IMG/VR virus record: IMGVR_UViG_2526164651_000005
From: a virus
Taxonomy: Duplodnaviria; Heunggongvirae; Uroviricota; Caudoviricetes
Length of the DNA: 16,069 nucleotides
Strand: one strand, 5' to 3'
Part shown: one piece after another, positions 5,458 to 5,701 of the stretch
Layout: each line of letters opens with the position of its first letter
How positions within the stretch are numbered: the first letter of the stretch is position 1
Program-made: the position numbers and the translations under genes
Notes under the pieces: generated by a model
Told to the model about the DNA's origin: nothing
The model's database searches: none
Seen by the model: the letters and a program-made list of their open reading frames with translations, nothing else

Positions 5458-5701
5458 TGTCTACCCTGTCTACCTGAGTAAAGAAAAATACATTTAATTC
5501 AGTGCATTAAGTTAGGTAGATAGCCTTTTTTTACTGTCTACCCACTATCTACCCTCTCTACCTGATTTTACCTGAATCAGACAGGGAGGTAGACACGGGG
5601 TAGATAGTGGATAAAAGCACTCTACCCCGCTGAAAGCAGCGCCATTACTGGCATGAGGGCCACTAAGGTAGATAAGGTAGATAAGGTAGATAAGGTAGAC
5701 A
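5458..5701. repeat. Replication-origin-like iteron cluster: at least 12 copies of AGGTAGA(T/C) or its complement TCTACC, including four perfect tandem 9-bp units (AAGGTAGAT at 5666..5701), around an AT-rich core
   Basis: TGTCTACC at 5458 and 5467; AGGTAGATAG at 5514; TGTCTACCC / ATCTACCC / TCTCTACC at 5535..5562; GGTAGACA and GGGTAGATAG at 5588..5607; TCTACCCC at 5621; four tandem 9-mers at 5666..5701. Orientation flips across the AT-rich segment 5476..5513. Confidence 0.75.

Follow-up and report, generated by a model that had tools for sequence, protein, structure and literature searches.

What function is served by the dense run of short repeats that separates the rep gene from its downstream neighbour in IMG/VR virus record IMGVR_UViG_2526164651_000005? 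The 16,069-nt stretch of DNA that we analysed (the window) comes from a virus of the Caudoviricetes, and a first-pass annotation, made from its letters alone, had placed a satellite replication origin at 5458-5701. These limits hold, starting 15 nt past the upstream stop codon (5443) and ending 49 nt before the next start codon (5750), and they fall within an intergenic region, 5444-5749, that very probably serves as the vegetative replication origin (ori) of an integrated phage satellite, that is, as the origin of the island itself. Judged by sequence comparison, this satellite is an EcCICFT073-type replication module of a phage-inducible chromosomal island (PICI) joined to a capsid-forming packaging module.

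The region has an experimentally tested ortholog. It matches Escherichia coli CFT073 at 89.5% identity over 305 of 306 nt (match H50), at a locus (L002) that is EcCICFT073, and all 11 hexamer repeats of the CFT073 region lie at offsets from the stop codon identical to those in the window. The two islands share the insertion site between roxA and phoQ, the gene order int-alpA-DUF4222-rep and the flanking genes. Across 5,426 complete E. coli genomes the 306-bp region was matched in 563, with a median of one matching site per genome and none on plasmids, and it lay directly 3' of rep in all seven E. coli loci that we fetched.

According to the text of Fillol-Salom et al. 2018 (ISME J, PMC6092414), pri-ori, pri-delta-ori and delta-pri-ori fragments of EcCICFT073 were cloned in a temperature-sensitive vector; plasmid replication at 44 degrees required rep and was significantly lower without ori, and deletion of pri-rep cut island transfer approximately 100-fold. 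By mapping the primers of the published supplement (pJP2027, pJP2028) onto L002, we found that the delta-ori construct stops 4 nt past the rep stop codon, with the pri-ori construct reaching approximately 20 nt into the next gene. Primer rep-2c has no exact match in CFT073; by eye, a 1-nt indel sets it apart from the assembly, and its annealing site is the beginning of the downstream gene. What the construct lacks is therefore the intergenic region as a whole, orthologous to window positions 5448 to approximately 5771, and the assignment as a satellite origin gains its support from this orthology to an element that was both cloned and deleted.

As an allele of a published and tested element, the origin is not new: its class, position and function have been known since 2018 for the 89.5%-identical ortholog. 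The intergenic region can thus be labelled with confidence as the ori of the island, and the sequence-only reasoning that first pointed to it was sound. The window differs from EcCICFT073 in its hexamer count, which two additional 9-bp units at the right end raise from 11 to 13, in having a capsid, portal and terminase right half of the capsid-forming PICI type in place of the CFT073 module, and in its host, Shigella flexneri. Beyond the published description, our sequence analysis adds a link to the ori1 and crr geometry of phage P4, the four 9-bp units, and a "primase" in which we recognise no primase domain.

The repeats themselves stand far above chance. The hexamer GGTAGA/TCTACC has 15 exact matches on the two strands of the window, 13 of them within 5460-5699 and two in the remaining 15.8 kb; dinucleotide-preserving shuffles (n = 200) gave a mean of 3.46 and a maximum of 8, with 0/200 reaching 15. 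The first-pass annotation had described at least twelve copies of the octamer AGGTAGA(T/C). Its density was real, but the strict octamer has only seven exact copies (0.36 expected), the six other sites reading GGGTAGA, with G for the first A, or carrying G at the last position. These deviations fall outside the core, and the conserved unit is therefore the hexamer, roughly RGGTAGAB. The four perfect tandem 9-bp units reported at the right end are indeed there, as four exact copies of TAAGGTAGA that a motif-frequency check found nowhere else in the window; Tandem Repeats Finder returned the same unit, x4.6, at 5664-5704. The 13 sites begin at 5460, 5469, 5537, 5548, 5557 and 5621 on the minus strand and at 5515, 5588, 5599, 5667, 5676, 5685 and 5694 on the plus strand, the first of them 17 nt past the rep stop codon. 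From left to right, the region comprises the following features.

5444-5749, no strand: whole intergenic region, ori; 306 bp, ortholog of the tested EcCICFT073 ori fragment (89.5% to CFT073 1392241-1392527).
5460-5474, minus: iterons 1-2; GGTAGA 9 bp apart, bordering the AT-rich stretch on its left; conservation of 95% or more among 47 distinct related origins.
5476-5513, no strand: AT-rich stretch, candidate DNA-unwinding element; 24% GC, in the same place as the AT-rich spacer of the P4 ori1, Serratia and Morganella origins.
5515-5520, plus: iteron 3; inverted relative to iterons 1-2.
5537-5562, minus: iterons 4-6; spacing 11 and 9 bp, completing with iterons 1-3 an ori1-like module "a a - AT - b - a a a".
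5588-5604, plus: iterons 7-8; mirror partners of iterons 5 and 4 about 5570/5571, within inverted repeats I1 and I7.
5621-5626, minus: iteron 9; mirror partner of iteron 3.
5629-5651, no strand: conserved non-iteron block CTGAAAGCAGCGCCATTACTGG within the GC-rich spacer; conservation of 95% or more across the 47 aligned sequences.
5664-5699, plus: iterons 10-13; four perfect tandem 9-bp units TAAGGTAGA.
5718-5727, no strand: AAAACTTTTT block, conserved just past the last iteron pair.

Along the array, two minus-strand sites precede the AT-rich stretch, which is followed by one plus and three minus sites, then by two plus sites and one minus, a GC-rich spacer and the final four plus sites. The first-pass annotation had described repeats in opposite orientation on either side of an AT-rich core. 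Opposed sets do exist, with iterons 1-2 and 3-6 flanking 5476-5513, but the 38-bp AT-rich stretch sits off the centre of the array, seven more iterons lie to its right, and the orientation pattern is more complex than a simple inversion. An exact dyad, computed from the coordinates, is centred on 5570/5571 and common to five site pairs (5460/5676, 5469/5667, 5515/5621, 5537/5599 and 5548/5588); the repeat search detected it as inverted repeat I1, with arms of 51 nt and 71% complementarity. On the minus strand at 5606-5614, between iterons 8 and 9, the sequence TTATCCACT agrees with the DnaA-box consensus TTATNCACA at eight of nine positions. This candidate was not adopted, and it was left out of the mechanism below because it is confined to the window/CFT073 subgroup, being absent from L003-L007.

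To follow the sites through related islands, we scanned the 330 nt past each rep stop codon in seven E. coli loci and in 80 IMG/VR loci found with a Rep alignment; a search of species-representative genomes had yielded three loci, two distant relatives among them, too few for statistics, and IMG/VR was used instead. At a Rep identity of 69% or more, every relative carries 7-12 exact copies of GGTAGA after the stop codon, and in all of these relatives except L022 and L054, where the overlapping words TAGACA/GTAGAC come first, GGTAGA is the commonest 6-mer. Most have 11 strict sites, some with a degenerate twelfth (GGTAGC). With MAFFT we aligned 47 distinct origins of the same layout as the window. 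At the nine sites to the left of the tandem array, alignment columns were 92% identical to the window, against 70% for the other columns, and 0/10,000 random placements of nine hexamers matched this conservation (p < 1e-4).

The gene directly upstream encodes the presumed reader of these sites.

3692-5443, plus: rep, initiator/helicase gene, 583 aa; D5_N, SF3 helicase (DUF5906) and C-terminal Pox_D5 by Pfam, TIGR01613 by NCBIfam; elsewhere annotated "P4-family primase".
5150-5425, plus: C-terminal winged-helix origin-binding domain (aa 487-578), presumed iteron reader; phmmer to 1KA8, Pfam Pox_D5.

Residues 487-578 of Rep match residues 2-92 of 1KA8, the origin-binding domain of P4 alpha (phmmer E = 7.4e-7), and the helicase core, residues 186-431, matches the PriRep of SaPI5, 7OLA (E = 4.9e-15). 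The PDB search returned no match between the Rep C-terminus and the C-terminal domain of SaPI Rep, and Pfam returned no Rep_3 domain. The adjacent gene had been called a primase in the first-pass annotation; the protein lacks a match to the Zn-ribbon and Toprim domains that P4 alpha has. Neither Zn_Ribbon_Prim nor Toprim_3 was matched by Pfam in the whole of Rep or in its first 169 residues tested separately, whereas both were matched N-terminally in P4 alpha and in a Morganella relative of 794 aa. The start of Rep falls inside the Toprim-aligned region, past the position of the catalytic EG motif. The gene called "primase" or "pri-rep" in RefSeq and in the literature may thus encode an initiator-helicase devoid of primase activity, as far as its domain content suggests, in which case priming would probably fall to host DnaG; a primase domain cannot be recognised in the routinely annotated "primase" of such islands.

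Where Rep identity falls to 52-55%, as in Serratia aquatilis, Morganella morganii and several IMG/VR contigs, the layout is kept with a different iteron, either TGTTCA(C/T), which is the P4 type, or GTATAC. The Rep C-terminal domain is nearly invariant in the GGTAGA class (KYTTRNSLYRVY ... TQTN) and differs in the TGTTCA and GTATAC classes, where it resembles that of P4 alpha (PRxxRxYLYHAY). Iteron class therefore appears to change with Rep lineage and with the C-terminal domain, and we infer that this domain reads the iterons. One layout with three iteron classes, including near-identical domains beside different iterons, offers a natural series for the study of winged-helix initiator specificity. 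Among such cases, L085 and L088 on the one hand and L083 and L087 on the other have nearly identical Rep C-terminal domains next to the iterons GGTATACA and GGTGTTCA, and origins of the L085 and L087 types each retain one or two sites of the other type at their right end. This looks like iteron turnover in progress, with a few residues of the wing as putative specificity determinants.

The following initiation mechanism is, on these observations, the most likely. After induction, the upstream gene would yield Rep, a hexameric helicase of the SF3 type, and its C-terminal origin-binding domain, a winged helix, would bind the 13 GGTAGA iterons. Rep would oligomerise on two opposed iteron sets and melt the 38-bp AT-rich stretch between iterons 2 and 3, the putative melting site, before loading itself as the replicative helicase, as has been proposed for SaPI Reps, with primers probably supplied by the host primase. 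The left module, 5460-5562, has the geometry of P4 ori1, and the right module, 5588-5727, may act in the manner of P4 crr.

Several points weigh against reading the region as the origin of the island, or against parts of the mechanism. The functional data stem from the CFT073 ortholog, with the window sequence linked to them by comparison, and, as stated in the text of PMC6092414, deletion of the CFT073 ori lowered colony numbers but did not abolish them; in view of these residual colonies, the region may not be the sole cis element. The AT-rich stretch does not sit at the centre, and 5628-5665, its mirror position, is GC-rich (58% GC), so the picture of a central melting site between iterons is only approximate. 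The two extra iterons of the window break the 2+2 symmetry of its relatives. Lastly, the C-terminal domains of L085 (GTATAC) and L087 (TGTTCA) are almost identical although their iterons differ, the proteins departing from each other mainly in a short stretch ahead of the conserved TN motif (RRARGM versus RKTRGV). Gross sequence class alone therefore does not explain the mapping of domain to iteron, and specificity may be set by very few residues or may be relaxed.

Phage P4 provides a geometric parallel. Its ori1 and crr elements are reportedly both bound by the alpha protein (Flensburg & Calendar 1987; Ziegelin et al. 1993). We took the P4 positions from the GenBank annotation of NC_001609. 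The six type-1 repeats of P4 ori, read on the complementary strand, follow the pattern a a - AT-rich spacer - b - a a a at positions 0, 10, 54, 75, 86 and 96; iterons 1-6 of the window repeat this pattern at 0, 9, 55, 77, 88 and 97, and the site positions in Serratia, Morganella and L087 are near-identical to the P4 ori1 numbers. With one site in the opposite orientation, the right half of the window array (b b a - 46 bp - b b, then AAAACTTTTT) resembles one P4 crr unit (b a a' - 44 bp - b b, then an A-run/T-run): in each, three sites and a spacer precede two sites 9 bp apart. The first-pass annotation was correct that the iteron, TCTACC, is unlike the TGTTCACC of P4; TGTTCAC is absent from 5444-5749, and its two copies elsewhere in the window are at chance expectation. 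What it missed is that the layout is that of P4.

The window iteron region, like crr in P4, lies directly 3' of the initiator gene, and both initiators carry, by homology, a 1KA8-type C-terminal winged-helix origin-binding domain; P4 alpha has the Zn-ribbon and Toprim primase portion that the window initiator lacks. In P4, crr (4291-4590) and the ori repeats (9310-9413) are approximately 4.5 kb apart, whereas in the window the two modules abut, inverted, within 240 bp, and the single crr-like unit of the window stands against two 120-bp direct repeats in P4 crr. The site geometry, by analogy, suggests an ori1-like and a crr-like module placed back to back, and ties PICI origins to P4 ori1 and crr. 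The opposite order, with a crr-like module and its AAAACTTTTT first and an ori1-like module with an AT-rich spacer second, occurs in L075-L078 and L081-L082, in both the GGTAGA and the TGTTCA class. As to the two conserved non-iteron blocks, CTGAAAGCAGCGCCATTACTGG is also present in the TGTTCA-class origin of L081, and AAAACTTTTT in P4 crr units and in distant relatives; a host-factor site and a priming site are possibilities for their role.

We speculate, with rather less than even confidence, that the ori1-like and crr-like elements, which P4 keeps separate, may here be fused into one compact, dyad-symmetric locus. Under this proposal, the 11 sites and a twelfth would provide one site for each origin-binding domain of a head-to-head SF3 double hexamer, the modules could stand in either order, the iteron switches (GGTAGA, TGTTCA, GTATAC) would track a few wing residues, and ongoing slippage among two, three and four units could tune initiation. 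The text of the published account (PMC6092414), Fig. 2a apart, contains none of these points.

The ori and Rep of the SaPIs, the pathogenicity islands found in Staphylococcus aureus, were reportedly described by Ubeda et al. 2007. In Qiao et al. 2022 (PMC9371898), the SaPI ori is given as 6-12 penta- or hexanucleotide iterons that surround an AT-rich region directly 3' of rep, two or more on each side and in opposite orientation, and SaPI Rep as a self-loading SF3 helicase whose C-terminal winged helix reads the 5-6-nt iterons. The window fits this layout, its 13 sites being one above the SaPI range; the SaPI hosts are Gram-positive and their iterons different, with a helicase core (7OLA) that is homologous. 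No DNA similarity to SaPI origins came to light, though no search was aimed at it. Iteron plasmids such as pSC101, R6K, F and P1 have direct repeats of 17-22 bp, bound by dimeric or monomeric Rep_3-type proteins (RepA/Pi-type) that recruit DnaA, DnaB and DnaC; their initiator sites adjoin an AT-rich unwinding element, and extra iterons can modulate replication. The window resembles them in having repeated sites beside an AT-rich element, and differs in that its sites are 6-9 bp long, occur in both orientations and are paired with a helicase-initiator.

An array of inverted sites directly upstream of a gene could also be a set of operators for a regulator of the downstream operon, which begins at 5750. 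Short inverted-site arrays are typical of operators, and conserved sequence, namely the block at 5629-5651 and AAAACTTTTT, is found between iterons and the ribosome-binding site. Scanning 5300-5900, however, we found no sigma-70-like promoter on the plus strand and no terminator, and an operator or terminator was therefore dropped as the primary function. The repeat class, moreover, follows the rep lineage, the same ori preceding differing packaging modules in the window, CFT073 and O157, and the ortholog, by the published text (PMC6092414), is needed for rep-dependent plasmid maintenance. Operators thus seem an improbable explanation of the array, with a secondary autoregulatory role still conceivable.

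Still less probable is a packaging recognition site, cos or pac, for the terminase of the island. The island does encode HNH, TerS and TerL (10778-13508), and small terminases often bind arrays of short repeats. HK97-type cos sites usually adjoin terS, and the region lies 5.8 kb from that gene. The same region with its hexamers is also present in EcCICFT073, which lacks TerL and is reported, in the text of PMC6092414, to carry the cos sequence of its helper phage, and the repeat class tracks the Rep C-terminal domain.

We give equally little credence to a function that depends on folding, whether as a structured RNA or as a single-stranded DNA hairpin (cruciform). The single-stranded DNA fold is stable (-40.2 kcal/mol, z = -4.4, beating 200/200 shuffles), and at a permissive E-value several weak matches to Rfam hairpins (microRNA precursors) were returned. 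Both are accounted for by the pairing of the inverted hexamers themselves, and complementarity of the spacers, compared by eye, is not kept in L004, L005 and L007. The Rfam matches, all to eukaryotic microRNA models and far under the gathering scores, were rejected as a palindrome artefact.

A generic dispersed or slippage-made host repeat with no specific function, to which a variable number of 9-bp units (2, 3 or 4) and the occurrence of (TAAGGTAGA)n in two unrelated IMG/VR contigs might point, is effectively refuted, and close to negligible in our estimation, by the number of places per genome, by the position 3' of rep and by hexamer positions that are kept while the spacers diverge. The first-pass annotation had named wide occurrence of the tandem 9-mers in the host genome as evidence against an origin; the right-end array instead occurs in 306 of the 5,426 complete E. 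coli genomes, at one place (at most two) in each and never on plasmids.

The copy number of the right-end iterons is variable among relatives. The window has four 9-bp units. Three are present in a single IMG/VR contig (L008, fetched a second time as L057), and two in CFT073, in other relatives and in the top-ranked E. coli hits. In the search with the right-end array, the top E. coli places covered 45 nt of the 63-nt query, equivalent to two units, with no record ranked higher, and the expansion in the window is most simply explained by replication slippage. An exact IMG/VR search for three tandem units returned one true relative (L008) and two unrelated contigs, L009 and L010. In these last two, (TAAGGTAGA)n of 4-5 units is found at 6150-6205 of L010, a contig labelled as a giant-virus metagenome-assembled genome, and at 278-330 of L009, a 170-kb contig. 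No other hexamer sites and no ori-like sequence surround either array, and both are chance simple repeats.

The island that carries the origin begins with a tyrosine integrase gene (1-1230), followed by a small alpA-like open reading frame (1605-1793) where relatives have an annotated AlpA-family regulator, by DUF4222 (3396-3695) and by rep (3692-5443). The first gene past the repeat region marks the right boundary of the ori.

5750-6028, plus: hypothetical gene, 92 aa; GAGGGGG ribosome-binding site ahead, equivalent annotated in CFT073 and other relatives.

Further small hypothetical genes lead to an HK97-type module at 7120-13508 that comprises capsid, prohead protease, portal, head-completion protein, connector, HNH, TerS and TerL, and beyond it lies host phoQ on the minus strand. 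Against the criteria for capsid-forming PICIs (bioRxiv 10.1101/2025.02.11.637232), the gene content, with neither tail nor lysis genes, fits, and the window is a capsid-forming PICI-like satellite, integrated in what is probably a Shigella flexneri chromosome. Rep is 100% identical to a protein of Shigella flexneri SFBU1023 (CP182556.1), which makes this strain the probable source, although a direct search of the fetched stretch L011 did not find the window ori sequence.

The island is a mosaic. Its left part, from int to the first gene past the ori (1-1899 and 2801-6028), shares 89-99% identity with EcCICFT073, and its right part (approximately 6030-13500), with the HK97-like capsid, protease, portal, HNH, TerS and TerL genes, is not in EcCICFT073; the replication module is therefore common to classic and capsid-forming PICIs. 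DNA similarity of the window to L001 and L002 ends at 6028. At 6025-6330 the window has a 101-aa open reading frame with no Pfam match, at a place where relatives, immediately past the first post-ori gene, encode a single-stranded-DNA-binding protein of 136-149 aa. In E. coli MS 200-1 (L003, 745-2500), rep is annotated as a frameshifted pseudogene and the ori still has nine exact hexamers, so that this locus may be a decaying island. On the far side of the window, the phoQ flank, 14253-16069, is approximately 97% identical to E. coli phoQ.

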